Shown here piece after piece: positions 28,374 to 64,000 of a DNA stretch of 64,000 bases; positions within the stretch are counted from its first letter, which is position 1; every line of letters starts with the position of its first letter. Source of the DNA: Bacilli bacterium (lineage in GTDB: Bacteria > Bacillota_I > Bacilli_A > RFN20 > CAG-288); contig JAFUFH010000080.1 in assembly GCA_017470005.1 (NCBI GenBank), positions 555-64,554 on the forward strand. Direction: 5' to 3'. A program made the position numbers and the translations under genes. Under the pieces are notes generated by a model that worked only from the letters and a program-made list of their open reading frames with translations, was not told the origin of the DNA and searched no databases.

Positions 28374-28424
28374 GCTTTGGTAATTAAGGAAAAAAAGCGT
28401 ATTTAATAGCTAAATCCTCCTCTT

Positions 28425-28454: not shown

Positions 28455-28474
28455 ATAAAATAAAGGAGTTTAAA

Positions 28475-49436: not shown

Positions 49437-49462
49437 ATCCAAACTCCTTTTACGCAATCATA

Positions 49463-49491: not shown

Positions 49492-49833
49492 CAATATAAT
49501 GATAAAATATTCAAAAAGCGCAATTAAAATTTGTAGTTTAATACTTTGTTAGAGTTCTACAGATTGTAAATAGATGAGTTCAAGCAATCTATGGTTCTTA
49601 CCTTAAGAAAACAAATACGAGCCATGCTTTTTCACAATATTTCGGTTATCTCCATAAAGTTATTAATATTTGCAAATTTACCCTCGCTATCGTTACTGCC
49701 ATAATGTATCCTTTTTATGAGATAAGAAGGATCATTTCAACTATTAAGGTTCATGGAAAGTTCCCTTTTTCTTTTGCATTTACTTTCTTAATCATATACA
49801 ATCATAGCAAGGTTAAATTACATATCTATCTTT

Positions 49834-50751: not shown

Positions 50752-50948
50752 CAAGTTTCTTATTCCATTATAGGTTGTTAGATAAAACATGGCATTTATC
50801 AATAGATATTTCGTTTGAAATATCTTTTTTTATATTGAAAAACTGGTATAAGAAGCAAAAAAATTAGAAATATATATAATAGAACTATATTTATTTATAA
50901 GTAAAAATGTTATACAATATTACCGAGATAAAAAAAGGAGATTCAATT

Positions 50949-51470
50949 ATGTCTAAATTCTGTTCCACCTGCGGTTGTGAAGTTGCTGATGATGAGACCA
51001 TTTGCCCAATTTGTAATAGTCCTTTCCCAGCGGTAACCCCTGCTGCTCAACCTGTTGAAACCAAGAAAGTTGATCCGGTTCAATCCTTCGTTCCGGACCA
51101 AGATAGAGTTCAGCCTCAACAGCCTCAACAAGTTCAACAGCCTCAACAAGCACCTGTTCAACAAGCACCCACTCAACAGCCTCAACAGCCTCAACAAGCT
51201 CAACAGCCTCAACAAGCTCCTGGTCAGCAAGCACCCGCTCAGCAAGCACCTCAAGCTGTTCCAAATGGACCTTTGGTCATGTCTATCATTGGTCTTATCT
51301 TCCCTATCCTTGTCTTCTCTCTCATCGGCTTCATCGGCGGTTTGAAAATTAAAGCGCGTTCTGGTAAAAAGATTGCAGCCATCATCATTGGTGCGCTCGG
51401 TTTATTTGAAACCTTAATCGTCATCATTGAAATCTTCGTCATGAGTGGTGTGATTTCAAAATTAGGATAA
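50949..51470 (+). CDS. Zinc-ribbon membrane protein with a Gln/Pro repeat linker
   Basis: KFCSTCGCEVADDETICPICNS, a (Q/P/A)-rich repeat, then two TM helices. Start MSKF lies behind AAAGGAG. Confidence 0.65.
   Translation: MSKFCSTCGCEVADDETICPICNSPFPAVTPAAQPVETKKVDPVQSFVPDQDRVQPQQPQQVQQPQQAPVQQAPTQQPQQPQQAQQPQQAPGQQAPAQQAPQAVPNGPLVMSIIGLIFPILVFSLIGFIGGLKIKARSGKKIAAIIIGALGLFETLIVIIEIFVMSGVISKLG
51111..51256 (+). repeat. Imperfect tandem repeat (CAGCCTCAACA-type units) encoding the QPQQ linker
   Basis: Repeated CAGCCTCAACAAG/CAACAAGCACC units can be seen directly. They also create the spurious antisense ORFs 50943-51254 and 50953-51264. Confidence 0.85.
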
Positions 51471-51473
51471 AAG

Positions 51474-51502
51474 AAAGCGGAGCTTCACTGCTCCGCTTTT
51501 TT
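51474..51502. terminator. Bidirectional terminator between convergent genes
   Basis: AAAGCGGAGC-TTCACT-GCTCCGCTTT with T runs on both strands. Confidence 0.8.
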
Positions 51503-51935
51503 AATGCGTTAACTCGCTCAGAGGTCTCAATCTTTCCACTGTGTGCATATCAATGATTTGAGAGAGGTAAAATATGATGAGATTGGCAAAAGTTTCGTCG
51601 TTTTCACTTCCTACATTGCTTCCGTGGACTTGAAGGAAGCATGTGTCATTCTCTCGTTTAGAGAGATAGGCGCTAAACCATGGACTCTTGGAATTGAACT
51701 CGTTGATGAGACGATACACTTCTAAACTCTCTTCTATCTGATCAAAGACAAAGAAGATATGAAAAGTTCCTTCATCATAAATGGCAATATCAATGGTGAT
51801 ATCATCTTTGTATTCTTCAAAGCGAGTATTGGTGACAATTTCGATGTGGTTTTCCTCGTCTGCTTTGACCTCAAACTTTAAGGATTGTAACGTATCTTTG
51901 ATTCGAGAATAAACTCTCTCTAACATTTCATTCAT
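51501..51935 (-). CDS. Small acidic cytoplasmic protein (144 aa), unknown function; last gene on the operon strand
   Basis: RBS TAGGAGA. No TM segment. I cannot place it securely in a family; a YbjN/chaperone-like fold is only a guess. Confidence 0.5.
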   Translation of the reverse strand: MNEMLERVYSRIKDTLQSLKFEVKADEENHIEIVTNTRFEEYKDDITIDIAIYDEGTFHIFFVFDQIEESLEVYRLINEFNSKSPWFSAYLSKRENDTCFLQVHGSNVGSENDETFANLIIFYLSQIIDMHTVERLRPLSELTH

Positions 51936-51963
51936 GGGCGTTTCTCCTATGCATTTATAAAAT

Positions 51964-51987
51964 TAGATGGGATGAATTTCCCATCTA
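51964..51987 (-). terminator. Hairpin (possible attenuating terminator) after the third coiled-coil paralogue
   Basis: TAGATGGGA-TGAATT-TCCCATCTA followed by ATTTT on the minus strand. The short U tract suggests partial termination. Confidence 0.5.
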
Positions 51988-51995
51988 ATCTTTTT

Positions 51996-53795
51996 TTATT
52001 TCTTATGTTTTTCAAAGTAGAGATTGACATCTTGAGAGATAGCATCAGCTTCAGAGAATTCGGCGTCATATTTTGCTTTCTCCTCATAGAGATGGTCGAT
52101 GATCTCTTTGTATTCGATGCGGTCTCTCTCCGCTTTCTCAACGATGCCTTTCTTCTTCTTGATGTTGGCAAGGAGTGCAAAGACTGCCATGAGAGCAGAT
52201 AAACCAGAACCAGCAAAGGAAGCGATAGCCCCAGGTAAAACATCTTTGGTGAGGGCGAATACACCTAAGGCAATCAAGCCAGCAAATAAGACGATACCGA
52301 TATAGAAGAGAGGTTTGATCGCTTTCTTTAACAGATATGCTTTCTTATTATCGATGAAGGTATCTACCGCTCTCTTATCTGCTTCTTTATCTTTGAATTC
52401 GGTCTGAGTTGCAAAATCATCGATATCGATAGGGAAAGTCTTCGGTAAGAGGTTATGATAACGATAATAATACTGGATATAAGCTTTCTTGGTGTTATCG
52501 ATCAAGAGGCAGAAGATATTCCATCTAGTCAAAGAGTTGATATCCGGATCAGGATTATAGAAGAACCAGTTCATCATCTCATAAGGGAGATTCAAGACAG
52601 AAGCGTCGTGTTTCTTCTTTTCATCTGCTTTATGGATGGCGTATTGATGGAATTCTTCTTTGGTGATGTTCTTCAATTCTTTCTTCAATTCCGGAAGAGC
52701 GGAGACGATATCTTCTAAATCTTTGATTTGACGGATGATAGCTTCTTCCCCTTTAGAAGGAGTTTCAAAGAGTCTATCAAAGGATTTATTCAAGATGGGG
52801 TTATTCTCTCTTAGATGGACATGGCTGATGTCCTCTAAATAATCTAAGATCGCTTGGTTATTCTTAGCAGAAGAGAGCGCGTTAGCCATATTTTGATAGA
52901 CATTGACAAAGCGAGTGAAGTAAGGATATTGAAGGGTTTCCGGAACATCTAATCTCTGGAAATAAGTCAAAATAAAGTTTCTGAATTGAGCATCTTGTTG
53001 CTCGGAAGAACATTCTTTATATTTCTCTAACAAGTGAGAATAAACGACTTTGGGGAATTCGTATTCCTTACCTTCATGAGATTCAATCTCATCCACCTTG
53101 AAAGGAATGATAGAGATCAACATCAAATAGGTGTAGGAATCTTTTCCTAGTGCTTCCATATCAGAGAGGCAGTTAAACCACTTTAAAGCGACATCAAAGC
53201 GGCGCATACGAAGATGGAATAGAGTCATGAAGGTGATGGTGGAGCGCTCATCTAATCTCAAAGCGCCATCTAAAGCTGCTTGACAGGTTACACGGTCATC
53301 GTTTCTCCAAGCCATGATGGCAAGAAGGGCGAAGGTCAACCAATAATCAGGAGCTTGTAAATGTTGCTTTTCAATGGATTGATAAATGAGTTCATCGCTG
53401 ACCATCTCTAAATCGAGATTGTCAACAAAGGCACGAGCAATCTTTCTAACTCTAGCTTGGTTATAGAACTCAAAATAGAGTTTGTTGCTTAAATCACGGA
53501 TGCGTTTTGCCGCGGTTTGAACCTCTTCAAAGATGAGTAACAATTCTCTGATCTGCGCTTTGGTCTGGATGACTTGTTTAAACGTGTTATCTGAGTATTC
53601 TAAATCGTTAGAATCTTTGAGCATCGTCGCATTGATATTGTTGGCAGTAGCATTCAATCTAGAAATATCGTTGCTCGCTTCATCGCGGATTGCATCTAAG
53701 CGACCTTCATATTCTCTGATCTTGCGTTCTACTTCATCAATTTTTCGGTTGAGTTCACCGATGTATCGTCTTAGTTCATTATTATCATAGGCCAT
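51996..53795 (-). CDS. Coiled-coil membrane protein, paralogue D3 of the novel operon
   Basis: N-terminal heptad-rich helix, conserved block DYWLTFALLAIMAWRNDD...LFHLRMRRFDVALKWF, C-terminal 2-TM hairpin and a charged tail. RBS AAAGGAGGG. Confidence 0.7.
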   Translation of the reverse strand: MAYDNNELRRYIGELNRKIDEVERKIREYEGRLDAIRDEASNDISRLNATANNINATMLKDSNDLEYSDNTFKQVIQTKAQIRELLLIFEEVQTAAKRIRDLSNKLYFEFYNQARVRKIARAFVDNLDLEMVSDELIYQSIEKQHLQAPDYWLTFALLAIMAWRNDDRVTCQAALDGALRLDERSTITFMTLFHLRMRRFDVALKWFNCLSDMEALGKDSYTYLMLISIIPFKVDEIESHEGKEYEFPKVVYSHLLEKYKECSSEQQDAQFRNFILTYFQRLDVPETLQYPYFTRFVNVYQNMANALSSAKNNQAILDYLEDISHVHLRENNPILNKSFDRLFETPSKGEEAIIRQIKDLEDIVSALPELKKELKNITKEEFHQYAIHKADEKKKHDASVLNLPYEMMNWFFYNPDPDINSLTRWNIFCLLIDNTKKAYIQYYYRYHNLLPKTFPIDIDDFATQTEFKDKEADKRAVDTFIDNKKAYLLKKAIKPLFYIGIVLFAGLIALGVFALTKDVLPGAIASFAGSGLSALMAVFALLANIKKKKGIVEKAERDRIEYKEIIDHLYEEKAKYDAEFSEADAISQDVNLYFEKHKK

Positions 53796-53813
53796 AGGAT
53801 TACCCTCCTTTGC

Positions 53814-55304
53814 TTACTTGGAAGCAGCTGTGGCTCTTTCTTTGCCCCAGTCGCGATATTTTTTCACCATCTCTGGATTGGTCTTGGAGTAAGAGATGGT
53901 GTCTTGGAAAGCTTTCTTTAATACGGGATAGGAGAATTCTTTCGTGTTTTGGATGAGCATCCTTTCGGATACTCCTTGTATGGTCTGCTCGATATCGGCA
54001 TAAGAGAATCCTTCCGATAAAGAGATAATCTCTTTCATCTGTTCTTGCTCTAAGGAGCAGTGGAAGCAAGAGTAGATGTATTTTTCTACACAGCTTTCTC
54101 TTTCCTGTTCGTTAGGCAAGTCGATGAAGAAGATTTCGGAGAATCTTCCTTTTCTAAACAGCTCGGAAGGTAGCATGGTGACGTCATTTGCTGTCGCAAC
54201 TAGGAAGGTTCTAGATGAGGATTCTTGTAACCAGAATAAGAATTGTCCGATGATTCTTCTTCCGGTATCATTGGATTCATTGTTGGTGGAGAGTGCTTTC
54301 TCAATCTCATCGATCCAGATGACACAGGGTGCCATATTCTCGATGAAGGTGAGAGCTTCAGCCATCTTTCTCTCGCTTTCTCCCACCCATTTATCAAAGA
54401 TGGTGTCGATGTTGAAGCGGTAGAGAGGAAGGGAGAAGTCTTGAGCGATATATTTGGCAGAGAGAGACTTTCCACACCCAGGGATGCCCGTTAAGAGTAT
54501 ACCTTTGGGGTATTTTAAGCCGTAGTTATGTAGCATCTCTTCCGTGGAGAAGAAGATCTTCTTTTTCTCTTCTATCTTCTCTTTAAACTGCTCTAAACCT
54601 GCTAAGTAGATGGGATAATGGATATCGACTAAAGTGACATTAGAGATGGATTCGAAGAGTTTCTTCTTTTGTGAGCCTAGAGAGAAGACATCTTTGGCGT
54701 GCAAACCATCTTGTGAGATCAAAGAGGAAGAGAGGATGTTATCGATCTGTCTTTCGGAAAATCCTCTTAAGACATTGGATGCTAATCTCATATCTTTCTC
54801 TTGGTAATCGATGTTCCCGCCTTTTTGGTATCTCTCGATGAAGGTCTTGACTTGTTGATATCTCTCTTCTTCATCTGGGAAGGATAATTCTGAGATCAAC
54901 CCAAGGTTAGAGAGTCGATTCCAAATGTTTTCTCTAGAGCAGATGAGAAGAGAATTCTCGTTGTCACTTGCCGCATAAACAGCATCGAGAACATCGCGAG
55001 AAAAGAGGTTATCATTATCGAGATGATTGACATCGATGAGGGCAAAGATAGCACCTTTTTTCTTCTTGAAGTAATCTTTGACATAAGCGGCAGGATTGGT
55101 GGTGTTTTCTATGACTTTCATGGAAGGAAACTTATAGATACCGCGAGAGGAAGAGTAAGCAAGAATCTCTTTCTTGATATCGTTTGCGATATCACAGAGA
55201 ATTCTTTCACAGCGCTCCCTTTCATCCGATTTCACAAGAATCAAAGGTGTTCTAGCATAGAGATAGGTCTCTATCTCTTTTTTGGTTTTTTGGTAATTAG
55301 ACAT
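53814..55304 (-). CDS. Classical-clade AAA+ ATPase with a non-canonical N-terminal domain
   Basis: Walker A GIPGCGKS, Walker B VIWIDEIEK, second region of homology LVATANDVTMLPSELFRKGRFSEIFFIDLP. The first ~230 aa lack a P-loop. Start is 55304 (GGAGA plus 6 nt) or 55310. Confidence 0.85.
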   Translation of the reverse strand: MSNYQKTKKEIETYLYARTPLILVKSDERERCERILCDIANDIKKEILAYSSSRGIYKFPSMKVIENTTNPAAYVKDYFKKKKGAIFALIDVNHLDNDNLFSRDVLDAVYAASDNENSLLICSRENIWNRLSNLGLISELSFPDEEERYQQVKTFIERYQKGGNIDYQEKDMRLASNVLRGFSERQIDNILSSSLISQDGLHAKDVFSLGSQKKKLFESISNVTLVDIHYPIYLAGLEQFKEKIEEKKKIFFSTEEMLHNYGLKYPKGILLTGIPGCGKSLSAKYIAQDFSLPLYRFNIDTIFDKWVGESERKMAEALTFIENMAPCVIWIDEIEKALSTNNESNDTGRRIIGQFLFWLQESSSRTFLVATANDVTMLPSELFRKGRFSEIFFIDLPNEQERESCVEKYIYSCFHCSLEQEQMKEIISLSEGFSYADIEQTIQGVSERMLIQNTKEFSYPVLKKAFQDTISYSKTNPEMVKKYRDWGKERATAASK

Positions 55305-55776
55305 CTTCATTCTCCAATCTATTCAGCAGAGCGCTTAAAAGATAGCGCACATTGAAGGAAGTGAGAGAGGGATATTGTTTTAATGTTTCTTGAATCTCCA
55401 CGTAATATTCTTTGATGTTTTCCTTCAAAGAATGAACGAGTTCTTTCCTATTTTTATCGGGAATGAACTTGAGTCTTTTTAAGAAGAAGAGAGAATTCAC
55501 TTGCTCTTCAAATCGAGTGAGGATCACAAGACAGGAAGGAAAGTCACCGATAGAAAGATAACTTCCCAATTCCTTGTTACAAGTCTCCATCTCATAGGTG
55601 AGAGTGTCATTAAGAAAGGGAACAATCTCAGATAAGAAATGAGAGAGAGAATACTTCTTGTCCTCTAACTTTCCTTGGCAAAACAAAGGGATATAATAAG
55701 AAAGATTATGAATCTCTTTGATCTCTTGAAAAGCGTGAATCCAATCGGAATAGTGACGTGGGGATAAAGAGAGCAT
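55297..55776 (-). CDS. Hypothetical 159-aa protein; overlaps the AAA+ gene start
   Basis: ORF with no recognisable motif. Overlaps the downstream AAA+ gene by 8-14 nt, which implies coupling. Confidence 0.5.
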   Translation of the reverse strand: MLSLSPRHYSDWIHAFQEIKEIHNLSYYIPLFCQGKLEDKKYSLSHFLSEIVPFLNDTLTYEMETCNKELGSYLSIGDFPSCLVILTRFEEQVNSLFFLKRLKFIPDKNRKELVHSLKENIKEYYVEIQETLKQYPSLTSFNVRYLLSALLNRLENEDV

Positions 55777-55779
55777 GTC

Positions 55780-55962
55780 TTATTTCTTTCTCAAGAACTT
55801 TTCGGGAGGTTCGATGGACCAAGAAGGTAACTTCTTGTTCAAATCATTGATTTTTTCTGTGGTGAGGTCGACAAGTTCCTCATCATCCTTGGTGAAGTTA
55901 TCAAGATAATTTTCTTGATTCTGATTGACTTTGTTTTCGTTTTCCATAACTGTTTTCTCCAT
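55780..55962 (-). CDS. Small acidic protein (55-60 aa)
   Basis: MEKTVMENENKVNQNQENYLDNFTKDDEELVDL.... The internal ATG at 55947 has the better GGAGA RBS. Gaps to both neighbours are 3 nt. Confidence 0.4.
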   Translation of the reverse strand: MEKTVMENENKVNQNQENYLDNFTKDDEELVDLTTEKINDLNKKLPSWSIEPPEKFLRKK

Positions 55963-55965
55963 TCT

Positions 55966-57600
55966 TTATAAGTTTTCAATCAAACTGAATAATTCCGGTT
56001 TCTTATTGCGGTTATCGTAATAGGTCTTTCTGTAGTTAGAGAGTTCGACCATCGTACCTCTGAGAAGGTCAAGTAAGGCGTTAACTTTCTTGTTGAAGCG
56101 ACGGTTTGCGAGTAGACAACGCAGTAACAGTAAGAGTGCACTGAGTCCTCCTAAACCGAAGACGATACCTAAGGTGATGGGTAAGTTTTCGTTGTCTTTC
56201 ATCGTGAAGGTAAGAATGATACCGACTGCGACAAAGGCGATAGTTAAGAGAGCTAAGATGATATTCAAGGCGTTGATGAATTTGATCTTAAATTTATTCT
56301 TTTCTAAGTGTTCTCTCAAGGAGATTTCTAATTCATCGGCATCATCTCCGTTAGAGACTTTCTCCCATTTTTCAATCTTGATGGTGTATTCTTCAGGGAA
56401 CTTCTTTTCGAAGTCGTTAGACCAATCGTTGAGTGCTTCTAAGAACCAAGTCTTGGTGTGTTGGAAACCAAATTTACGTATATGAACATCCACATTCTTC
56501 GCGTAAAGAGCCCAGTTGGTGCACTTTTGACCAATATTTTGTTTTCTCTTTTTCTGCTCGAGCATCTCATTGAACTGTTGCTCGGCTACCTCTTCTTTTC
56601 CTTTGTTCTTGATGATGAGTTCATAATATTCTTGCTCTTGTTTCAATTCGAGCTCTTCCTCATCATAATTGGTGACTAAGTCTTTCAAGATGGAGTCGAT
56701 TCTAGCTTTATAATTAGAAGCGGATTGGACGATGTTTTCCACATCGACATCCTTGATCATCTTGATGAAGGTATCGTATTTGCTAGCCTGATAATACGGG
56801 AATTTCATCTCTTCACAATTGACGATATATTTATCGATAAATTCACGAGAGTAATTGCTTCCCGGTTGGGTGTTCTTGATGAAGTTTAAGAAAGCGTTAT
56901 AGAGTTGATTGTGAATCTCATCTTGGAGGTTGATTTGATTCATCCAACCATCGACGACTTCTTGAACCATGTTTTCAATGGAGCGGTCCACTTTGAAGAT
57001 GCCGTGGATATAGGCTTCAATCATGACAGCGGTCTCTTCTTTTAAATCATCGGGTACGACGGCTTTAAAGTATTCGACAAGCCAATCATGTGCGGCTTCC
57101 ATACGCTGGAAACGAAGGTTGAGAAGACAGAAGTAGAGGGAAGTCTTCATGGCATCGATACGGAAGGATTCTCCGATAGCGTTCTGAGCTAATTTTTGAT
57201 TATCATTGACCCAAGCAGAGAGCGCGATAAGAGAATAAGAGAGCCAATAGCGAGAAGAAGTGATCCATAATTCTTCACTCAATTTGGCGATGGTCTTCTC
57301 TCTGACTAAAGAGATATCACAATCCTTGATGATACCTAAGGATGCTTTTCTGATGGCATCATAATCGAAGAAGCGTTCACGGATGATTTGGTTGATACGG
57401 AGAATGCCTTCCTGAGCATTCTGCATTTGTTCATTCTCAACCATTTCCGTTTTGAATTGTTTGATTTCATTGTAGGCTTTGTTGGCCGTTGCTTTCACTT
57501 TCTCGGCCATCATATCCACATTGGCTATGGAGGTGTGGACACGAGCGGAAAAGCCGGTGATTACTTCATTTAACTGGTGTACAACTTGATCAGTGCTCAT
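55966..57600 (-). CDS. Coiled-coil membrane protein, paralogue D2
   Basis: RYWLSYSLIALSAWVNDNQ...LLNLRFQRMEAAHDWL block and a C-terminal 2-TM hairpin. RBS AAAGGAGA. Confidence 0.7.
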   Translation of the reverse strand: MSTDQVVHQLNEVITGFSARVHTSIANVDMMAEKVKATANKAYNEIKQFKTEMVENEQMQNAQEGILRINQIIRERFFDYDAIRKASLGIIKDCDISLVREKTIAKLSEELWITSSRYWLSYSLIALSAWVNDNQKLAQNAIGESFRIDAMKTSLYFCLLNLRFQRMEAAHDWLVEYFKAVVPDDLKEETAVMIEAYIHGIFKVDRSIENMVQEVVDGWMNQINLQDEIHNQLYNAFLNFIKNTQPGSNYSREFIDKYIVNCEEMKFPYYQASKYDTFIKMIKDVDVENIVQSASNYKARIDSILKDLVTNYDEEELELKQEQEYYELIIKNKGKEEVAEQQFNEMLEQKKRKQNIGQKCTNWALYAKNVDVHIRKFGFQHTKTWFLEALNDWSNDFEKKFPEEYTIKIEKWEKVSNGDDADELEISLREHLEKNKFKIKFINALNIILALLTIAFVAVGIILTFTMKDNENLPITLGIVFGLGGLSALLLLLRCLLANRRFNKKVNALLDLLRGTMVELSNYRKTYYDNRNKKPELFSLIENL

Positions 57601-57605
57601 GTTAT

Positions 57606-59411
57606 TTATTCTCCTTTACGCTGAAATAAGTCTAATGTTTCTTGCAAGATTTCTTGGTTCTTCAATTCCGTATCTAAATCGTCTCGCCATTTCTTGATAC
57701 TTTCCATCAAGTGAGCGAAACGCTCTAGGGCATCTTGTTTTCTTTTAGAAATCTTCTTGTTGAGCTTGCTTCGTCTGAAGAGGGATAGTAAGAAGAAGAG
57801 GACAGTCAATACGGCAACGCTGATGAGAGCAATCCACCATCCTAGGGCGACTTGTCCTTCTTCTTTTGGAGCGACGGTGATGATTAGTGTAGTAAGAAGG
57901 GCAGTGACAACAAAGGAGAGAATAAAGAGGATTCCTAATGTCTTATACGCGCCATCTTTTAGACGCATTCTTCTTCTGTTCTTATCGTAGTATTTGCTTA
58001 AGGTTTGAGCGCCTTCTTGGGTGGAATCCGCGTTGAGAGAGAGCTTGCAACCATCGATAGAATAATCGAATTTCTTATCGCGGTTTTCTAAGATTCTTTG
58101 ATGATAGATCTTGTATCCTTCCTTGATGGGTTCTAGCATGAAGGCGATGGCGAATAATCTAAGCTTAGAGTCCATCTTCTCTTTGATATCGGCGAAGGCG
58201 AAGCGGAAGAGAAGGTCCCCTAAAGTGAGTTTCTTCGACATCTCTTCTACAAGAAGCATGTATCTCTTGTGCGCTTGATCCATATCACCGTGTGCTTTGA
58301 CGATATATTCGTTTCTCTTCTGCTCTTTGATGATCTCGTATTCTTCGGGGTCATAAGCGGAGACAAGATGGTGAAGAACGTTTTCAATCTGGAGGGAGAG
58401 AGCAGCGATCTCTTCGACTTTTCCGTTTAAGATTTCACGATAATATTCGTTGATCTTTCCTTCGGCTTCCGCCATGGACATGATTCGTAAGAGAGCTTCA
58501 TATTGTTTGGAGTTCTCTTGGATGGCATCATAAGTCTTTTGGGTGGAATGAGGATAGGAGAGAGCGAAGCGGTCCACGTTGTTCTTGACTTGATTATCAA
58601 AGGAGGCGGTAGTGGTACGGATCTCTTGTAACATCTGGTTAAACTGAGCCCCGACTTCTTTTTCAAATTCTTTATCTTGTCCAAAGGCGTGATGGAGATA
58701 GGCTTCTAAGACAAACTGGAATTCTTCTCCTAAGTCATAGATATCCACTTGGCTCTGATACAATCGATACCACTGTTTTGCTGCATCTTTTCTTCCGAAA
58801 CGGAGATTGGTGAGCATGTAGAAGATATAGGTCTTAAAGTCGGCAAGTTCAATCGCTTTAGCGACAGCTCTCTGACTAGCTTCCTTCTCATCATTGACCC
58901 AGAGCATCAAGCCAGAGAGAGCATAGGAAAGCCAATAATCGGCATTGAGTAATTGTTCTTTTTCTACCTCTTCACGTAACGTTTCGTTAGAGATGATCTC
59001 ACTATCGACACCGATGACATAACCTAAAGTGACTTTTCTTAATTTTTCAAAGAAACGGAATTTTCTTTGGTATTGGTCATTCAAGTTGGTTAAATTTTTG
59101 CTGGCCGTAGCAACATTCTTGATCAAGAAGTATTTCTTCTCTAAATCCACAATAGCGGAATAGACCGTATCGGCATTCATAAAGGATTCTTCCGTTCTCG
59201 TCTCTAAGGCACCTAAAACAGGAACCATATAGTTCTTTAACGTATAGGAATTTTGTACTGCAACAGACATTTCACTCAAAGAACGATTGAGCTCCTCGAC
59301 CAGCTGATTACAATAATCAACTTTGCGATTGAGAGTATCTTCTAGAGAATCAATTTGAGCTAATAATTGTCGTTGCTCTTCCATGTATCGCTGATATTCT
59401 TCTTCGGTCAT
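57606..59411 (-). CDS. Coiled-coil membrane protein, paralogue D1
   Basis: DYWLSYALSGLMLWVNDEK...LTNLRFGRKDAAKQWY block and a C-terminal 2-TM hairpin. ATG 59411 lies behind AAGGAGGG; the ORF-track TTG at 59417 sits too close to the RBS. Confidence 0.7.
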   Translation of the reverse strand: MTEEEYQRYMEEQRQLLAQIDSLEDTLNRKVDYCNQLVEELNRSLSEMSVAVQNSYTLKNYMVPVLGALETRTEESFMNADTVYSAIVDLEKKYFLIKNVATASKNLTNLNDQYQRKFRFFEKLRKVTLGYVIGVDSEIISNETLREEVEKEQLLNADYWLSYALSGLMLWVNDEKEASQRAVAKAIELADFKTYIFYMLTNLRFGRKDAAKQWYRLYQSQVDIYDLGEEFQFVLEAYLHHAFGQDKEFEKEVGAQFNQMLQEIRTTTASFDNQVKNNVDRFALSYPHSTQKTYDAIQENSKQYEALLRIMSMAEAEGKINEYYREILNGKVEEIAALSLQIENVLHHLVSAYDPEEYEIIKEQKRNEYIVKAHGDMDQAHKRYMLLVEEMSKKLTLGDLLFRFAFADIKEKMDSKLRLFAIAFMLEPIKEGYKIYHQRILENRDKKFDYSIDGCKLSLNADSTQEGAQTLSKYYDKNRRRMRLKDGAYKTLGILFILSFVVTALLTTLIITVAPKEEGQVALGWWIALISVAVLTVLFFLLSLFRRSKLNKKISKRKQDALERFAHLMESIKKWRDDLDTELKNQEILQETLDLFQRKGE

Positions 59412-59433
59412 AGACAATTGCCCTCCTTATGGC

Positions 59434-61422
59434 TTAAAAGAATAGTTTGAAGACACCTAGATCTTCAAATATTTGGACCTTCTCTTTACTAAATTCGTCT
59501 TTCTTTTGCATCACGAATTTTTTGAAAGAGATTTTCTTTCCTGAGACTAGCATGTTCTCAGGAAGCTTACCTTTGCTGGTGAGAAGAGGAATGAGTGCTT
59601 CTATATCCTGTGGGTTCTCATTAGAGAGAAGTAAATATTTCTGAGCGATATTGGATTGAATACTTTCTCCAAAGAGAGAATATTTCTCTGGCGTGAAGTC
59701 GCTAGAGGAATATTTGAGTAGGGTTTGTAGAATTCCTTTTTTGACAATCAGGCTCTCTTGGATATAGAAGAGATATTTTTCGATGGTGTTTGTTGTCACT
59801 TTTTGGGGGTGAGAAAGAAGCTTTTGCATCAATATGGTGGAATAAGGATGTTGATTCAAATTTGCGATATAGAGATTGACACATTGGTTGCTGATCGCGA
59901 TTTGTTCTGTCTGGAAATATTCCTCTAATTCTTTGGGGATAGGAAGGTTAGTGAGAAGGTATTCGCATCCTTTCTCTTCCACCTTTAATCCTTGTGAGAG
60001 CAAGAAGAGAATCACTTGAATCTTCACCTTGGCTTCATCTTTTCCTATCAGGACATATTGATTGAGAAGAGAGGAGAAGTAAGCGGGGTTCATTTTTAGT
60101 TGGAACACTTTTTCTAAAATGGTGATCTTCTTCTCTCCATCTAACACGCAATTGTTGAGATAGGAAGTGAGAGCTTCTATGCTTAATGCGGTGATTTTAG
60201 AGAGAAGGTAGAGATTGACTTCGACTCTTAAAGCAACCGTTCTTTCGAGTTGATTGAGCGTGTATCTCAGTCCCATGTCCGTGCTTCTTTCGGTGATTTT
60301 GAAGTTGTCATAAAGATAAGTGAGAACACGGGTATAATCGTCTTTGCTTAAGGTATTCATTCCTAGCATGGAAAGGAGTTGTGTGGAGGTGATCTCGTAG
60401 AGAGATTTTCCTTTCTTTAGCGTCTCTAGGGCTTTTAGAAGCACATCGATATTGTGGCTACCTGGACCAAAGAGAGAATCGACAATCTTATTACTATCTT
60501 CATCGATGAGACGTAGAGAGGAGATTCTTTCAAAGATGAAGGTGATTTTATCCGGAGTGGATTCGGTGAGAAGTTTCTTTAGCAAGGAAGGAAGGTCGAC
60601 ATGGATGGATAATTCTTTGGCCTTGATGGCGACTAGAGATTGGATCTCATAAGAATCTTGGGTCTCTTCGAAGTATTTATCCATCAGCTTTTGATCTCTT
60701 GTTTCCAAAGCCTTGTTATCTAATAAATATTTAACCCATTCTAGTTTTTGCTCATTGCTTGGGTATTCTTTTAAGAGATAGAAGAGAGTAAATTTCTTAT
60801 CGATGAAGGCGATGTTGTGAATGATTTGAGATAACTCTTCTGTGGCTCCGGCTTTACATAAGATGGGAAGAAGTCGTTTGTTGATATAAGGATTATTGAT
60901 TTGGTCAAAATCGATGAAGTGAGCGATGAAGGAGGCTCTCTCCTCTAGATGCAAGGCAAGATATACCGTATAAAGGAGGGCGTATAAATCGCTCTCGTCC
61001 AAAAAGTCATATAGACCTTTTTCATCGTCTAAGATATTCGGGTATTCGCTGAGAAGTGTTTCTCGGTAGTGTGTGATTCTCGCGTTGGCTACATTTTTGT
61101 CCAAGCTGGAATCGTATGAACCTCTGAAGAAGTAGTAGGCGATATTTGCAAGATAGGTTCCTACGTATTCATGTTCAAGTTTTTCGCATTCCATGAGTTG
61201 ATCTGATGCCGAATCAAAATTCAACTTGGAGATGGCGATGAGTGTGGATCTCACGGTTTGTTGAATACCGGCTAATCCATCGATCTTCAACCTAGAATCA
61301 TTGAAGAAATCTTGTTCGAATATTTTCCCGCAATAGGGACATTCAAATCTCTTTTTCTCCTTGTTGAAGACGAGCTTTCCTGAACAATCATCACAACGGT
61401 GAGAGGAAAGTTGTATTGCCAT
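59434..61422 (-). CDS. Zinc-ribbon protein with a large all-helical body (662 aa)
   Basis: N-terminal CDDCSGKLVFNKEKKRFECPYCG, then about 620 aa rich in Leu, Lys and Glu. No TM helix. Confidence 0.65.
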   Translation of the reverse strand: MAIQLSSHRCDDCSGKLVFNKEKKRFECPYCGKIFEQDFFNDSRLKIDGLAGIQQTVRSTLIAISKLNFDSASDQLMECEKLEHEYVGTYLANIAYYFFRGSYDSSLDKNVANARITHYRETLLSEYPNILDDEKGLYDFLDESDLYALLYTVYLALHLEERASFIAHFIDFDQINNPYINKRLLPILCKAGATEELSQIIHNIAFIDKKFTLFYLLKEYPSNEQKLEWVKYLLDNKALETRDQKLMDKYFEETQDSYEIQSLVAIKAKELSIHVDLPSLLKKLLTESTPDKITFIFERISSLRLIDEDSNKIVDSLFGPGSHNIDVLLKALETLKKGKSLYEITSTQLLSMLGMNTLSKDDYTRVLTYLYDNFKITERSTDMGLRYTLNQLERTVALRVEVNLYLLSKITALSIEALTSYLNNCVLDGEKKITILEKVFQLKMNPAYFSSLLNQYVLIGKDEAKVKIQVILFLLSQGLKVEEKGCEYLLTNLPIPKELEEYFQTEQIAISNQCVNLYIANLNQHPYSTILMQKLLSHPQKVTTNTIEKYLFYIQESLIVKKGILQTLLKYSSSDFTPEKYSLFGESIQSNIAQKYLLLSNENPQDIEALIPLLTSKGKLPENMLVSGKKISFKKFVMQKKDEFSKEKVQIFEDLGVFKLFF

Positions 61423-61434
61423 AAATTACCTTAA

Positions 61435-62160
61435 TTATTTTGCAGAACGGATTCGATTGTTTCTTTGTTTGACGACCAAGCGAGCTTGATTGACATAGGT
61501 TAAGATCACCTGTTCACTATCGGGGGAGGAGAGGGCATCGTTGATCATGGAGATGAACATCTTTAATTTTTCATCATATCCCTGAGTTTCTGGAGTAGAC
61601 ATGGGATCCGAGTATCGGATATCTTCTTGCAAGGCGATGACTTCTTTCTGGACTTTTTCATTATGGATAGAAGCGATGATGAGATCTAAATCATCGACCA
61701 TGAAGCGGATGGTTTGAACTTTTTGTTTCTGATTCTTTTCTATCGCTGTGACCGCATTCTTGGTCAAGAGAGAAATGATAAAGATGACAGCAAAGATACC
61801 GAGTAAGAGAATCTGTAAGACAGAAACTAATACGGTAGGGGTCTCCACAGCGAAAGCGGAAAGAATCATGAACAGAAGGGCAAAGAAGGCTTCTATGACA
61901 AAATAAATGAGAGAGACAATGGAGAGAGGTAAACCAAAGAATACCGCGTTAAGACCAGTTTTCTTATCATAGAGGAAGATAGAGGACATCTGTAATAAGA
62001 AAGCCAAGGTCATAAAAGCGTAGGAGAACCAGAAGTCAAAGATACAAATCTCTGACGTAATCTGCCATGGTTTGAAGATCGTGAAGACCAAAATATTGAT
62101 CAAAGCAAGAAGGATAGCGTAGATAGAAAAGAATAAAATCGTATTTTTATGCTTTTTCAT
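61435..62160 (-). CDS. Four-TM membrane protein with a C-terminal soluble helical domain
   Basis: Four hydrophobic helices in residues ~8-135, followed by about 100 aa of charged sequence. RBS AAGGGGGA. Confidence 0.6.
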   Translation of the reverse strand: MKKHKNTILFFSIYAILLALINILVFTIFKPWQITSEICIFDFWFSYAFMTLAFLLQMSSIFLYDKKTGLNAVFFGLPLSIVSLIYFVIEAFFALLFMILSAFAVETPTVLVSVLQILLLGIFAVIFIISLLTKNAVTAIEKNQKQKVQTIRFMVDDLDLIIASIHNEKVQKEVIALQEDIRYSDPMSTPETQGYDEKLKMFISMINDALSSPDSEQVILTYVNQARLVVKQRNNRIRSAK

Positions 62161-62174
62161 TTTTTATATCCCCC

Positions 62175-63359
62175 TTATTTCAATTTATTTCCACAATTGG
62201 AGCAGAATAGCGCATTGGGATCCACTTCTTTTCCGCATTTGGAACAACAACAACGGCTTTCTTCTATCTTGTAACCGCAGTTCGAACAAAATCTTGCTCC
62301 CACAGAGAGTATTACTCCGCAATTAGGACAGAAGACTTCTCCCCCTTGTTTTTCTTCATTTTTTTGGAAGAATTGATTGATGTTCATATTCTCTCCACCA
62401 TTATCATTTTGATAACTTCCTTGGGGTTGTTCCGGAGTGGAAGGAGTATTGTTGCTATGATTATTTTGGAAAGCATTACCGGCCATGTTAGAGAAGGCAT
62501 TGCCCATGGGAACACCGATTCCCATACCCATGCCCATGCCCATGCCAGCACCCATCATGGAGCCTGCATTTCCTTCATTCTTGGCGGCATTAGAAAGAAT
62601 TTGATACATCTGTTCTTCTTTCCAAGTAAATCCTTGGATGTTTCTAGATGTAGCTAGATTCTTTGCGTTGTTGATGACTTCATAATCTTTTTCGGGAACA
62701 TCGATACTTTCGATATTGAATTGATTCAAAAGAATTCCGTAATCCGCAAACAATTCTTTTAAGACCTTAGATACTAATTCACCTACTTCAAAGATATGAG
62801 CGTTCATATCAAAGAAAGAGACTTTTCCTTGAATCATGATCTTAGAGATATAGTTCTTAACATTGGCGGAGATAATACCTCTCAATTGATGTAAAAGGTC
62901 ATCATTCGTAAATGTGGTTTCATTGCCAACAAATTTCAATAAAAATTTTCTAGAATCATCGACCTTCACCGTCATGGTGCCACAGCAACCAACATGAAGG
63001 AAGATATTATAGATAGGATCGTTTAACGTGATTCCACCGCTGGTACCCCACTTTAACTCTAATTGGTTTACCTTGTTAATAAAGTAGACTTTGCAAGGAA
63101 AAGGTTCCCCATCCACCAAATTCTTGTAAGCGTTAGAAAGAAGAGGAATATTTTGATTGGATAAAGTATATCTGCCAGAAGGGAATAAATCTAATGCTCT
63201 GCCATTAGCAAAAAGTATCGCCTCATAAAACTCATCCACAATCAATTGGGATAAGGCGTTAAATTTTTCATTCCCAGAAATCAAATATTCTTTACCCGGA
63301 TTTTTCCACACCAAAGAATCTTTTGGTCCTTCAAACTTGATCACTTCCGCTATTGCCAT
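62175..63359 (-). CDS. SPFH-like (COG4260/YdjI-type) protein with a Gly/Met-rich linker and two C-terminal zinc ribbons
   Basis: MAIAEVIKFEGPKDSLVWKNPG...LIVDEFYEAILFANGRALDLFPSGRYTLSNQNIPLL is typical of the YdjI / 'virion core protein-like' SPFH family. A GAGMGMGMGMGIG linker follows. The C-terminus reads CPNCG...CSNCG plus CSKCG...CSNCG. Start set at 63359, behind AAAGGAG; the 65-codon upstream extension is AT-rich with no support. Confidence 0.75.
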   Translation of the reverse strand: MAIAEVIKFEGPKDSLVWKNPGKEYLISGNEKFNALSQLIVDEFYEAILFANGRALDLFPSGRYTLSNQNIPLLSNAYKNLVDGEPFPCKVYFINKVNQLELKWGTSGGITLNDPIYNIFLHVGCCGTMTVKVDDSRKFLLKFVGNETTFTNDDLLHQLRGIISANVKNYISKIMIQGKVSFFDMNAHIFEVGELVSKVLKELFADYGILLNQFNIESIDVPEKDYEVINNAKNLATSRNIQGFTWKEEQMYQILSNAAKNEGNAGSMMGAGMGMGMGMGIGVPMGNAFSNMAGNAFQNNHSNNTPSTPEQPQGSYQNDNGGENMNINQFFQKNEEKQGGEVFCPNCGVILSVGARFCSNCGYKIEESRCCCSKCGKEVDPNALFCSNCGNKLK

Positions 63360-63511
63360 AAATTGACTCCTTTGCCTTACTTCATAATTGTAAAGTTTTG
63401 TGAAATAGGCGGAATAAAAGCCAATATTACTTATAATTTCCGTAATTTTAATATTGTTTTTATATTCATAAACGTTTACATTTTTGAAATTTTTGTACAA
63501 TAAATTCGAAT

Positions 63512-63533
63512 AAAACGAATCTTGATTCGTTTT
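63512..63533. promoter_or_regulatory. Perfect 10-2-10 palindrome upstream of the operon (candidate operator)
   Basis: AAAACGAATC-TT-GATTCGTTTT. A third copy of GATTCGTTTT lies at 63676-63685. Confidence 0.4.
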
Positions 63534-64000
63534 AACGTTATTAATACAATTCAAAATATCCTAAAGAGTTGGAAACTCATTACTTCTTCATTTTTAAATA
63601 CTTTGATAATTAAAAAGACAAATAAATTAGTTTTATTTATATATAAAATATTTTTGTGCGGTTTCTCAGTGACGTGATTCGTTTTATCCAAAGCAAGGCT
63701 TGATTCTATAGAAAAACGATGTCAAAAACTGTCAAATCGCATTTTTTTCGCTTTCCATCGTTCCTGTTTTTAAAAATGCCAAAATGTCATTTATAGATAG
63801 TTTACTCACTGTTTTCTTCTCATTTGATGGCTCTTTATGGATATTTTAGCATACAAAAACATATCACTTGCAATAAGTTGTTTATGAAGAAATGTACTAT
63901 AAAACTAAGGTAAATTCCATGAATTCATCAAACTTGGAGCGGAGTCTAATTTGGAAGTTATACATGTCGCAGATCTGTTTGACGATAGCTAAGCCTAAGC

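Follow-up and report, generated by a model that had tools for sequence, protein, structure and literature searches.

Between positions 51996 and 63359 of the window (the whole stretch of 64,000 nucleotides analysed here, from the genome of an uncultured gut Bacilli member), the minus strand contains nine ORFs, all of which are intact according to an ORF check. They are given here from g1 to D3, with two features that follow them.

g1, 62175-63359, minus strand: 394 aa; cytosolic SPFH protein (Band_7_1, YdjI/SamI-type) with a Gly/Met-rich linker and two C-terminal zinc ribbons
g2, 61435-62160, minus strand: 241 aa; 4-5 predicted N-terminal TM segments, then a helical cytoplasmic C-terminal domain
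g3, 59434-61422, minus strand: 662 aa; N-terminal C4 zinc ribbon and a large alpha-solenoid scaffold
D1, 57606-59417, minus strand: 601-603 aa; N-terminal coiled coil, TPR-like helical body, beta-hairpin, TM hairpin and C-terminal cytoplasmic helix
D2, 55966-57600, minus strand: 544 aa; D1 paralogue
g6, 55780-55962, minus strand: 55-60 aa (60 in the window); small acidic peptide
g7, 55297-55776, minus strand: 159 aa; helical, presumed adaptor of the core
AAA+ ATPase, 53814-55310, minus strand: 496-498 aa; degenerate N-terminal AAA-like module, then an active classical-clade (Cdc48-D2-type) module
D3, 51996-53795, minus strand: 599 aa; third D paralogue
Putative tenth gene, YbjN-like, 51501-51935, minus strand: 144 aa; Pfam YbjN 8.6e-5
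Intrinsic-terminator-like hairpin, 51474-51499, minus strand: 10-bp stem with 6 G-C pairs, then a T-run

The spacers measure, in g1 to D3 order, 14, 12, 16 or 22, 5, 3 and 3 nt, followed by a 14-nt overlap of g7 and the AAA+ gene, which shrinks to 8 nt with the second ATG as start, and by 18 nt. D1 has 603 aa when read from a TTG start, versus 601 aa in the NCBI call, and g1 is preceded by the ribosome-binding site GGAG, 8 nt ahead of its ATG. The coordinates reproduce the figures of the original prediction, which had described nine same-strand genes with such spacers and an overlap, and its domain calls (SPFH with zinc ribbons, AAA+, paralogous D1-D3) hold as well. The YbjN-like gene begins 60 nt past D3, and its stop codon is directly followed by the terminator-like hairpin, the only strong minus-strand terminator; the operon thus probably comprises ten genes. 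Proteins of the YbjN family resemble type III secretion chaperones in their fold. In one related locus (L091), the position after D3 is likewise taken by a homologue, 33% identical, but none was found in L001-L084, and the tenth gene is lineage-specific. An Rfam scan of 49000-64000, leader included, gave no family at the gathering score.

The product of g1, which is the opening gene in at least 54 of 80 related loci, matches the Pfam families Band_7_1 (1.7e-34), Zn_Ribbon_1 (4.2e-16, two stretches) and DZR (3.7e-8). This is the YdjI architecture that had been proposed for it, a Band_7_1 domain with C-terminal zinc ribbons, and a hydrophobicity scan predicted no TM segments. In g2, hydrophobic segments lie at residues 8-26, 38-56, 81-99, 96-114 and 111-129; the protein matches no family in Pfam, NCBIfam or PADLOC, and a homologue is found in the matching position in 62 loci. 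The zinc-ribbon residues C10, C13 and C28 of g3 are invariant in an alignment, C31 nearly so, and its AF2 model, confident for about residues 170-570, consists of all-alpha repeats for which Foldseek returned just generic PPR, adaptin and importin solenoids (TM below 0.25). A YdjH-like g2 and a YdjG-like g3 were rejected, as TPM and NTF2-like domains are missing and g3 is a zinc ribbon with an alpha-solenoid. A relationship of g3 to the D proteins was also ruled out (hhalign probability 0.4%).

D1, D2 and D3 are paralogous coiled-coil proteins, as had been claimed (BLASTP: D1-D2, 8e-31; D1-D3, 2e-22; D2-D3, 8e-17), and each has two C-terminal hydrophobic segments which would form a TM hairpin (D1 495-513 and 529-547; D2 447-465 and 475-493; D3 496-514 and 524-542). 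They match no Pfam family, and those of the window yielded nothing at E<=0.1 against PspA_IM30 or Snf7; among 84 D-family members, the sole recurrent Pfam match is a weak one to DUF2207_C (26 members). The AF2 model of D1 (pLDDT 81.8) has no significant match among PDB and BFVD structures (best Foldseek E 0.07, TM below 0.2), and the Foldseek matches of the TPR-like body are weak. D1-D3 represent a new family with a predicted N-terminal coiled coil, TPR-like body, C-terminal TM hairpin and C-terminal tail; in a set of 1.84 billion representatives, this family makes up 734 clusters at 50% identity. An assignment to PspA, Vipp1 or ESCRT-III, for which profiles and Foldseek had been suggested, was rejected, since similarity was found in neither sequence nor fold; D stays outside the described families. 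PspA is indeed absent from the cluster, and the idea that D1-D3 fill its slot survives as an analogy only.

The AAA+ ATPase belongs to the classical clade, as expected: it matches PF00004 (1e-28), and among solved structures it is closest to VAT, Cdc48 and p97, namely to their D2 domains (1.7e-43), with Vps4 at just 1e-20. Walker A (GIPGCGKS), Walker B (IWIDEIE), the pore loop (KWVGESE) and the arginine fingers are intact, the second region of homology reads RKGRF, and the protein looks like a working unfoldase. In hhalign, its N-domain aligns with the AAA module of the same protein (probability 85%, E 6e-6), and it has no relative among PDB sequences; neither Pfam nor the PDB sequence search revealed a MIT domain. 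The best PADLOC match, IetA (3.5e-37), covers the generic AAA module alone (residues 215-483), and no other component of the cluster is matched by PADLOC. The N-terminal part of the g6 peptide is variable and disordered; its C-terminal part carries the invariant linear motif KKLPxWxxEPPxxF[LI]K, in which K43, L45, P46, W48, E51 and P52 are invariant across an alignment of 30 species, so that g6 is a real gene. In g7, an N-terminal P-x-T-Y-x-E-W motif is conserved, and Y9, W12 and F98 are invariant in the alignment. Altogether, families could be assigned to just two of the nine products; seven are without assignment, where the original prediction had counted five.

Synteny was compared across 80 loci of other species, which belong to Clostridia, Bacilli and Bifidobacterium. 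The full order SPFH-TM-ZnR-D1-D2-g6-AAA-D3 is present in 54 of them and D1-D2-g6-AAA-D3 in 73, the remainder being mostly cut by contig ends; the g7 profile matches 74. No inversions or order violations occur in the 80 loci, and the D3 gene invariably follows the AAA+ gene. Of about 185,600 species genomes, 99 carry the cassette, again in Clostridia, Bacilli and Bifidobacterium, which is a rare and patchy distribution. The 142 flanking proteins spread over 137 Pfam families and contain no conserved neighbour cluster; both in the window and at the 56 loci that were sampled, housekeeping genes of ordinary kinds flank the cassette, and genes for restriction-modification, Abi or integrases are not visibly enriched. 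IMG/VR viral contigs contain no D homologues. As the gene order recurs while the flanking genes differ, the cluster is a real, widely conserved, self-contained multi-gene cassette. No published description was found and the system is apparently undescribed, so that both the predicted conservation of the neighbourhood and the novelty claimed for it stand. TM prediction supports a location of every product within the membrane or at its cytoplasmic face, in agreement with the proposed envelope association.

The SPFH gene, which had been taken as part of the defining unit, turned out to be absent from loci of other phyla, and it is the four-gene core D-g6-g7-AAA+ that defines the system. This core is found without SPFH in most phyla, and in Proteobacteria, Fusobacterium and Streptococcus it also occurs by itself, in monoderms as well as diderms. 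Such minimal cassettes, with or without an extra 160-aa protein, are located on Comamonas and Komagataeibacter plasmids (the latter adjoining an IS3 transposase and an integrase), in Fusobacterium, and in a predicted Streptococcus satellite, the boundary of which is doubtful because the last cassette gene is also the very end of the record. Serine recombinases flank another one (L095), a DDE transposase adjoins a further one (L092), and in two loci (L093 and L094) the core is joined to an FtsK_SpoIIIE ATPase; two proteins of about 95 aa in L093 show no WXG100 signal. True plasmid records number just three among the core carriers, and predicted satellites one. The g7 profile matches every minimal cassette, and in L092 a Ser/Thr kinase carries g7 as a C-terminal fusion (hmmsearch 2.5e-6). 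The g6 motif recurs in the minimal cassettes of Proteobacteria, Fusobacterium and Streptococcus, and D2 is the closest paralogue to their single D (phmmer versus the Comamonas D, 8e-50; D1, 1e-30). The ancestral core is D with the g6 peptide of about 60 aa, the g7 adaptor of about 160 aa and the AAA+.

An extra module lies between g3 and D1 in 25 of 71 loci, i.e. in about one third of the nine-gene loci. It encodes a HerA-type ATPase of about 900 aa (DUF87 3.9e-5; PADLOC HerA down to 1.7e-12) and a variable, polymorphic toxin-like protein, accompanied in 13 of the 25 by a small partner gene. In the variable protein the N-terminus is hyper-acidic, 14 cases have between 1 and 6 'HNYG..DPEW' repeats, and the C-terminal domains are swappable; among the latter are a papain-fold (Peptidase_C39_2-like), a Gln_amidase toxin (5.5e-10) and a HExxH peptidase. 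All 13 loci with a papain-type domain also have the partner gene, and none of the 11 with another toxin type does; three loci have the partner gene as an orphan. Some toxins add a small-alarmone-synthetase-like domain (PDB SaSAS, 1.3e-8) and their partners bear an HD_4 hydrolase domain (7e-9), so that toxin and immunity-like partner match domain for domain. Six variant loci have no SPFH+TM pair, and their zinc-ribbon solenoid protein is instead fused to a TIR domain; all four of the g3 homologues scanned bear this domain (best 2e-13). These accessories (toxin/immunity with HerA, TIR fusion and Ser/Thr kinase fusion) speak for conflict no less than for envelope repair, so that the phage or envelope-damage response of the original prediction is still a candidate.

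The reading we favour, tentatively and at somewhat less than an even chance, is that the cluster is a horizontally transferred AAA+/scaffold machine of the membrane face which is used in biological conflict, to deploy or control harmful effector proteins, rather than in housekeeping. D1, D2 and D3 would form a hetero-oligomeric platform, anchored by the TM hairpins and held together by the N-terminal coiled coils, as suggested by their ancient paralogy, the fixed gene order and the D1 model. The strict co-inheritance of D-g6-g7-AAA+ across phyla suggests that the g7 adaptor and the g6 peptide, the latter via its invariant C-terminal motif, tie this platform to the AAA+ ring. As a Cdc48-D2-type unfoldase, the AAA+ may pull on a disordered tail (the g6 N-terminus, the D C-terminus or the hyper-acidic N-terminus of a cargo toxin) and thereby assemble or disassemble the platform, or feed a protein into or through it; the motifs are observed, the substrate we infer. 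By analogy with SamGHI/YdjGHI and HflKC-FtsH, the SPFH protein, recruited by g2 and g3, could build a membrane microdomain or cage round the platform. The output would be an effector event at the membrane, for which about one third of related loci carry explicit cargo (HerA-type pump, toxin and immunity partner); in six loci, g3 bears TIR in place of the SPFH+TM pair. [quoted passage not shown] The housekeeping flanks, the lack of IMG/VR homologues, the few plasmid and satellite records and the silence of PADLOC beyond the AAA+ count against it, as does the fact that SPFH and zinc ribbons with a classical AAA+ are also a signature of PSP- or ESCRT-type maintenance.

That the cluster is a non-homologous analogue of PSP or ESCRT, serving membrane repair, vesicle budding or envelope-stress tolerance, is the main rival to this reading and, though unlikely, a serious possibility. 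D1-D3 would then polymerise on stressed or curved membrane, SPFH would mark or stabilise the site, the AAA+ would recycle the scaffold in a Vps4-like manner, and g2 and g3 would recruit SPFH as SamG and SamH recruit SamI. The YdjI/SamI architecture of g1 (PMC11237479) fits this, SamI being recruited by membrane proteins and stabilising PspA foci (PMC8581546; bioRxiv 10.64898/2026.02.06.704340), and so does the AAA+, which resembles in its architecture the tandem 'inactive classical AAA + classical AAA' reported in bacteria beside PspA and beside a TM-anchored divergent Snf7 (Ravi 2024, PMC11237479 supplement). The cytoplasmic membrane face of all products, the housekeeping neighbours and the stoichiometric three-paralogue design, which suggests a structural machine, speak in the same direction. 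Like pspA-ydjGHI (samGHI) of B. subtilis, the cluster co-encodes a cytosolic Band_7_1 SPFH protein with C-terminal zinc ribbon, a zinc-ribbon protein and a membrane protein, acting at the cytoplasmic membrane face. However, PspA is missing and the gene order differs; g2 lacks the TPM domain of YdjH, and g3 combines a zinc ribbon with a 600-aa solenoid, whereas YdjG has two zinc ribbons, an NTF2-like domain and a TM segment. The three D proteins, g6, g7 and the AAA+ have no counterpart in the psp operon, and the core can lack SPFH. With ESCRT-III/Vps4 the cluster shares membrane-bound helical scaffold paralogues, a classical-clade AAA+ unfoldase and the SPFH+ZnR partner, archaeal ESCRT loci containing an SPFH+coiled-coil+ZnR protein (Ravi 2024, PMC11237479). 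Still, the D fold is not that of ESCRT-III or PspA: a coiled coil, TPR-like body and integral TM hairpin stand against a peripheral alpha1-alpha5 hairpin polymer, a MIT domain or recognisable MIM motif is absent, and the AAA module is nearer to Cdc48 D2 than to Vps4. Rarity, patchiness and unrelated flanks are unlike PspA, and TIR, HerA ATPase, matched toxin/immunity pairs and kinase fusion are left unexplained.

The toxin/immunity, TIR and kinase accessories are also unaccounted for if the cluster is a dedicated quality-control system for membrane proteins, in which an SPFH cage surrounds an AAA+ unfoldase in HflK/C-FtsH or Msp1/Cdc48 style, hairpin- or tail-anchored proteins are extracted from the membrane and D1-D3 serve as adaptors or receptors for the substrates. 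We consider this quite improbable. SPFH does occur together with a classical-clade AAA+ at the membrane, as in HflK/C-FtsH, the pore loop KWVGESE is suitable, the D proteins have hairpin anchors and C-terminal tails that are free, and TPR-like bodies, weakly matched in D, are typical client-binding modules. But no protease partner or protease domain is encoded, the AAA+ and SPFH proteins are soluble without a TM segment (presumably being anchored via the D proteins), SPFH is absent beside the core in most phyla, and the system is too rare for a housekeeping role. A chance juxtaposition of genes that are not co-functional is refuted by the synteny data, with the same order in 80 loci of two phyla, zero violations and unrelated flanks; spacers of 3-22 nt, one overlap and a single terminator at the 3' end likewise leave it next to no probability.

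Type VII secretion systems comprise an FtsK-type ATPase (EssC/EccC), the AAA+ EccA, small helical substrates and LXG toxin/immunity pairs, and their assembly in S. aureus is flotillin-assisted. Similarly, relatives of the cluster embed an FtsK/HerA-superfamily ATPase and polymorphic toxin/immunity pairs, and the cluster has a cytosolic AAA+, small conserved peptides, a chaperone-like YbjN protein and SPFH. In contrast to type VII secretion, it has no WXG100/LXG domain and no homologues of EssB, EsaA or EccB/D/E, and the HerA-type ATPase, which lacks a TM segment and FHA domain, is optional and missing from the window. None of the components has an extracytoplasmic domain, which, with the occurrence of minimal cassettes in monoderms and diderms, argues against a classical trans-envelope secretion apparatus. 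The anti-phage system IetAS (AAA+ ATPase IetA and protease IetS) contains the top PADLOC match of the AAA+, but no IetS protease is encoded, the NCBIfam IteA score is 95 bits versus a cut-off of 510, and CDC48, CdvC and PAN score just as well. If the cluster does serve in conflict, toxin export or release and intracellular defence have about the same chance. The system probably loads, unfolds or releases proteins, which in many relatives are toxins, at the inner face of the membrane.

The original prediction had placed nine tightly packed genes on the minus strand at 51996-63359. All nine open reading frames were present and intact, and the packing was as described, with spacers of 14, 12, 16 or 22, 5, 3 and 3 nt, an overlap of 14 nt (8 nt if translation starts at the second ATG) and a final spacer of 18 nt. 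Because the only strong minus-strand terminator lies directly behind a YbjN-like gene downstream of the last coiled-coil paralogue, D3, the transcription unit probably comprises ten genes. A homologue of the YbjN-like gene with 33% identity was found at the equivalent position in metagenome locus L091 (9871-10317) and in none of the 80 genome loci described below; it is probably a lineage-specific tenth gene. The operon leader had no Rfam match to a regulatory RNA. The features at the 3' end of the operon are:

51501-51935, minus strand: YbjN-like gene (144 aa; type III secretion chaperone-like fold family), 60 nt after D3
51499-51474, minus strand: terminator
49834-50751 and 50907-51470, plus strand: two zinc-ribbon, multi-TM proteins, one of which has a long linker rich in Q and P, converging on the operon 3' end
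48078-49457, minus strand: AAA_14/DUF4143 ATPase gene, about 2 kb past the operon 3' end

The window, part of an uncultured Bacilli MAG (100% match to IJ194_06640), surrounds the operon with genes for glycoside hydrolases, MscL, TraX and the like. At related loci L025, L043, L003, L089 and L093/L094, too, the cassettes are flanked by membrane proteins with a zinc ribbon or a double zinc ribbon, a weak recurring association. The AAA_14/DUF4143 gene appears to be unrelated to the operon, as do three paralogues of about 735 aa whose N-terminal domain is GH20b-like, and a gene resembling GHKL sensor kinases, all at 20099-30679.

With a profile of D1 homologues, relatives were detected in 99 species genomes, from which 80 loci were retrieved and their six-frame ORFs searched with the nine window proteins. 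The hosts were Oscillospiraceae, Lachnospiraceae (including Hungatella hathewayi WAL-18680 and strain AC2029), Ruminococcaceae, Christensenellaceae, Bacilli/Anaeroplasma and three Bifidobacterium species. The order SPFH-TM-ZnR-D1-D2-g6-AAA-D3 was found in 54 of the 80 loci and the shorter order D1-D2-g6-AAA-D3 in 73, most of the remainder being cut by contig ends; no locus violated the order, and the profile of g7, the 159-aa protein, matched 74. Orthology is positional everywhere: D1 homologues come first, D2 homologues second, and D3 homologues stand behind the ATPase. A chance juxtaposition, which the original prediction had left to a neighbourhood comparison, is excluded by this conserved co-location. 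In a Pfam scan, 142 immediate neighbours at 56 loci were spread over 137 different families, most of them housekeeping, and neither a conserved flanking gene nor a defence island was found around the cassettes. Since no flanking gene is conserved, the cassette moves as a unit. It is conserved and mobile, and it lies outside recognisable defence islands.

The D proteins proved to be paralogues as claimed (BLASTP 8e-31, 2e-22 and 8e-17), and each of the three has the expected TM hairpin of two C-terminal segments. The AF2 model of D1 (pLDDT 81.8) starts with a coiled-coil-like helix of about 130 residues, with a low-confidence break at 57-73, for which profile searches returned keratin and myosin. 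A helical-repeat body (145-446), a small beta-hairpin, the TM hairpin and a C-terminal helix of about 50 residues follow. Kinship with PspA, ESCRT-III, TelA, EzrA or the dynamin stalk, a comparison suggested at the outset, is supported by neither sequence nor fold, the PDB profile matches being coiled-coil noise of the same keratin and myosin type. PspA_IM30 and Snf7 matched none of the nine products at E<=0.1, and PspA and Snf7 are outside the 25 Pfam families most frequently matched by 84 D-family members. Among these members only DUF2207_C recurs, weakly (26/84), while every other family matches at most five.

Foldseek comparison of the D1 model with the PDB gave nothing significant (best E 0.07, TM <0.2), the top 50 being TPR proteins and alpha-pore-forming toxins. 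We did not accept D as a tripartite alpha-pore-forming toxin of the SmhB, AhlB or MakA type (E 0.1-0.8, TM about 0.2). A SLATT pore domain was likewise rejected, its matches (SLATT_1 2/84, SLATT_fungal 2/84, best E about 1e-3) being under the cut-offs and compatible with TM composition bias. Kinship with phage proteins was also rejected: Foldseek gave no significant match in BFVD, and no D was found in IMG/VR viral contigs. When 1.84 billion representatives were scanned in full with HMMER, the family amounted to 734 clusters, all of about 540-620 aa. It is thus a uniform and rare family of hairpin-anchored scaffolds.

The gene between g7 and D3, g8, encodes a classical-clade AAA+ ATPase, as had been proposed (PF00004, 1e-28, 100.9 bits). 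Among solved structures it is closest to the D2 domains of VAT, Cdc48 and p97 (1e-37 to 1.7e-43), with Vps4 at 1e-20. The translation contains Walker A (GIPGCGKS), Walker B (IWIDEIE), pore loop 1 (KWVGESE) and the second region of homology with RKGRF arginine fingers, the set that characterizes classical-clade unfoldases, and judged by these motifs g8 should be competent for threading. The N-terminal 228 residues gave no MIT match in Pfam and no sequence relative in the PDB. They align with the AAA core and lid of g8 itself (hhalign probability 85%, E 6e-6), which makes g8 a tandem of an inactive and an active AAA module. As to the IetAS defence system, in which an IetA ATPase is paired with an IetS protease, g8 reached 95.2 bits with NCBIfam IteA against a cut-off of 510, and the cluster contains no protease. 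Two small proteins accompany the ATPase: g6 is a conserved peptide with an acidic, variable N-terminus and the invariant C-terminal motif KKLPxWxxEPPxxF[LI]K, and g7 is a helical protein, the putative adaptor, with an invariant N-terminal P-x-T-Y-x-E-W motif.

For g1, the claim of a YdjI-type SPFH protein with two zinc ribbons was borne out by Band_7_1 (1.7e-34; 119.8 bits against a cut-off of 24) and two C-terminal ribbons (Zn_Ribbon_1 twice; DZR). Band_7_1 with a C-terminal zinc ribbon is also the architecture of YdjI in the available text of Ravi et al. 2024 (PMC11237479). Of the other pspA-ydjGHI (samGHI) components, a YdjH-type TPM membrane protein and a YdjG-type protein (two zinc ribbons, NTF2-like domain and TM segment) are absent, and neither g2 nor g3 matches TPM or NTF2-like families. 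Instead, g2 has 4-5 hydrophobic segments, and g3 has a single N-terminal C4 zinc ribbon followed by an alpha-solenoid, with no TM segment. The model of g3 was built on an alignment with three homologues only (pLDDT 67.6), and its central solenoid alone is trustworthy; as a relative of D, g3 was rejected (hhalign probability 0.4%). Apart from the zinc ribbon of g3, no part of g2, g3, D1-D3, g6 or g7 is covered by a family in Pfam, NCBIfam or PADLOC.

With D1 as tblastn query, four further settings with distant D genes (E about 1e-20) came to light:

Comamonas megaplasmid
Two small Komagataeibacter plasmids, with an IS3 transposase and an integrase adjoining (K. nataicola NZ_CP134889, cassette at 1106-5629)
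Fusobacterium vincentii NZ_CP084075.1 (locus L088), a 2.1-Mb PLSDB 'plasmid' record with one annotated feature
Predicted Streptococcus oralis satellite Javan368 (locus L085, MK448457.1), cassette at 7929-12512

The 2.1-Mb record is almost certainly the F. vincentii chromosome and should therefore not be taken as plasmid carriage. In Javan368 the cassette takes up the last 4.6 kb or so of a predicted satellite of 14.3 kb, and the record stops precisely where the last cassette gene does, at its stop codon, so what looks like satellite cargo may be flanking chromosome. A g6-type small ORF, unannotated in this record, is located in the 9650-9840 gap.

The gene set is the same in all four settings: only one D gene, which resembles D2 most (8e-50), a peptide of about 60 aa that shares the LPxW[DS]hxP motif of g6, a g7 homologue, the AAA+ ATPase (1e-97 to 1e-105) and a protein of about 160 aa. 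The latter is present in all eight minimal cassettes aligned for it and absent from the nine-gene loci; examples are:

L087, 7537-8022
L086, 1106-1576
L085, 12030-12512
L088, 12782-13276

No relative of it was found in Pfam, PADLOC or the PDB. Residues C94, H103, H114, E101, E141 and K116 are invariant. The protein might be a small enzyme or bind metal.

Further loci show the D-g6-g7-AAA+ quartet between serine recombinases (L095) or next to a DDE transposase (L092). At L089 a zinc ribbon is fused to g6, and a kinase and a PP2C phosphatase are encoded just upstream of the cassette. In L093/L094, genes for an FtsK_SpoIIIE ATPase, a coiled-coil protein, two helical proteins of about 95 aa and zinc-ribbon proteins adjoin the core. 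Two of these loci in detail are:

L092, 10217-11773: Ser/Thr protein kinase with a C-terminal g7 domain (residues 345-471), replacing the stand-alone g7
L093 (GCA_016719165.1), 3413-16224: minimal cassette inside a longer same-strand block with an FtsK_SpoIIIE ATPase (911 aa), a coiled-coil protein (460 aa), a small TM protein, and zinc-ribbon and double-zinc-ribbon proteins

The L093 block resembles type VII secretion in outline; its proteins of about 95 aa gave no signal for WXG100. From the minimal core found elsewhere it follows that the nine-gene form is this core plus a triplication of D and an SPFH-TM-ZnR-solenoid module. The core predates that form and is more widely distributed.

An inserted module separates g3 from D1 in 25 of 71 loci, for example:

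L003, 4574-9987
L024, 3003-9907
L043, 5363-9718
L064, 6138-9940

It consists of a soluble HerA-type ATPase of about 900 aa, a variable protein of 215-1133 aa and, in 13 of the 25, a small partner gene. The N-terminus of the variable protein is hyper-acidic and disordered; 14 of these proteins also contain one to six copies of a repeat of about 40 aa ('HNYG..DY..Y..DPEW'), and the C-termini are exchangeable: a papain fold (Peptidase_C39_2-like), an HExxH peptidase or Gln_amidase (5.5e-10), which is a polymorphic-toxin domain. H. hathewayi WAL-18680 has HerA together with an HExxH protein. The partner family accompanies the papain-type domain in 13 of 13 loci and other C-termini in 0 of 11; orphan partner genes occur in L029, L062 and L068. 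Four putative toxins carry an additional small-alarmone-synthetase-like domain (PDB 8vx3 SaSAS, 1.3e-8), and an HD_4 hydrolase domain (7e-9) is found on the partners in exactly these four loci. Such domain-for-domain matching is, at the sequence level, the signature of toxin/immunity or toxin/antitoxin pairs, and polymorphic toxin/immunity pairs are accordingly predicted in the 25 related loci and not in the window. Neither the HNYG/DPEW repeat nor the partner family seems to have been described. The 160-aa partner and the 160-aa protein of the minimal cassettes are not homologous by hhalign (probability 2%). In six loci the SPFH and TM genes are missing, and g3 carries a TIR domain in all four that were scanned (best 2e-13). 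Toxin/immunity, HerA, TIR and kinase modules are thus options of the relatives.

When the window and the minimal cassettes were compared with PADLOC-DB v2, no family matched SPFH, g2, g3, D, g6, g7 or the 160-aa protein below E 1e-4. The leftovers were scattered and marginal (e.g. D3 to LmuB, 1.6e-4), and the generic AAA module alone was recognised. A membrane-anchored FtsK/SpoIIIE ATPase (EssC/EccC) and WXG100 substrates, as in type VII secretion, were not found in the window, and the HerA-type ATPase of the relatives is soluble and optional. The AAA module of g8 is nearer to Cdc48 D2 than to Vps4, and a Vps4-like ATPase appears to be absent from bacteria according to the available text of a 2025 ESCRT-III review (PMC7619361). 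The system is not described in the available texts of that review, Ravi et al. 2024 (PMC11237479), Makarova et al. 2024 and Kaur et al. 2020, and searches of the non-subscription literature by domain combination, keyword and protein accession returned no description. On these grounds, the lack of a description and the reported absence of a bacterial Vps4-like ATPase, we regard the system as new with respect to that literature.

As a working model, D1-D3 would form a membrane platform, which g6 and g7 would couple to the ATPase; the latter may pull on a disordered tail, and SPFH, g2 and g3 might organise the site, by analogy with SamGHI and HflKC-FtsH. Due to the rarity, patchiness and mobility of the cassette and the effector repertoire of its relatives, we tentatively favour a role in biological conflict, giving about equal weight to toxin export or release and to intracellular abortive defence. 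This has to be set against a window that encodes no effector, housekeeping flanks, the lack of extracytoplasmic parts and of viral-contig copies, and the fact that PADLOC sees a generic AAA module only.

The main rival, an ESCRT- or PSP-like analogue for membrane maintenance, seems rather unlikely to us. It can draw on the published YdjI-type SPFH protein (PMC11237479), on archaeal ESCRT loci with an SPFH and zinc-ribbon protein, and on bacterial 'inactive AAA + AAA' ATPases beside PspA or TM-Snf7 (PMC11237479 supplement), as far as the available texts go, but the scaffold that defines PSP and ESCRT-III systems (PspA/Vipp1/Snf7) was not found in the cluster, and the accessory modules are left unexplained. 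Membrane-protein quality control we consider improbable. More boldly, and with comparable doubt to that attached to membrane maintenance, the core might be a new bacterial membrane machine made up wholly of undescribed families, in which a Cdc48-type unfoldase on a hairpin scaffold moves proteins into, through or off the cytoplasmic membrane, and to which gut Firmicutes add an SPFH cage and HerA-type pumps for the release of polymorphic toxins by direct translocation or vesicle budding. If true, such a machine would be analogous in function to ESCRT or type VII secretion while having no homologous parts.

The system is practically testable, since the minimal cassette has 4-5 genes on about 5 kb and could be studied in a model host, and some of the carriers are in culture (Hungatella hathewayi WAL-18680, Lachnospiraceae bacterium AC2029, Ruminococcaceae bacterium P7, three Bifidobacterium species, Komagataeibacter nataicola and Comamonas antarctica). 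A Cdc48/Vps4-class unfoldase is here genetically locked to membrane-anchored scaffold paralogues and an SPFH protein, in at least four phyla. Either reading of its function brings at least five new protein families, namely D, g6, g7, g3 and the 160-aa protein of the minimal cassettes. If the system remodels membranes, ESCRT-like logic would have been invented independently; if it deploys the embedded toxin/immunity pairs, it would represent a new route of effector delivery or abortive infection in abundant gut anaerobes (Lachnospiraceae, Oscillospiraceae, Bifidobacterium).
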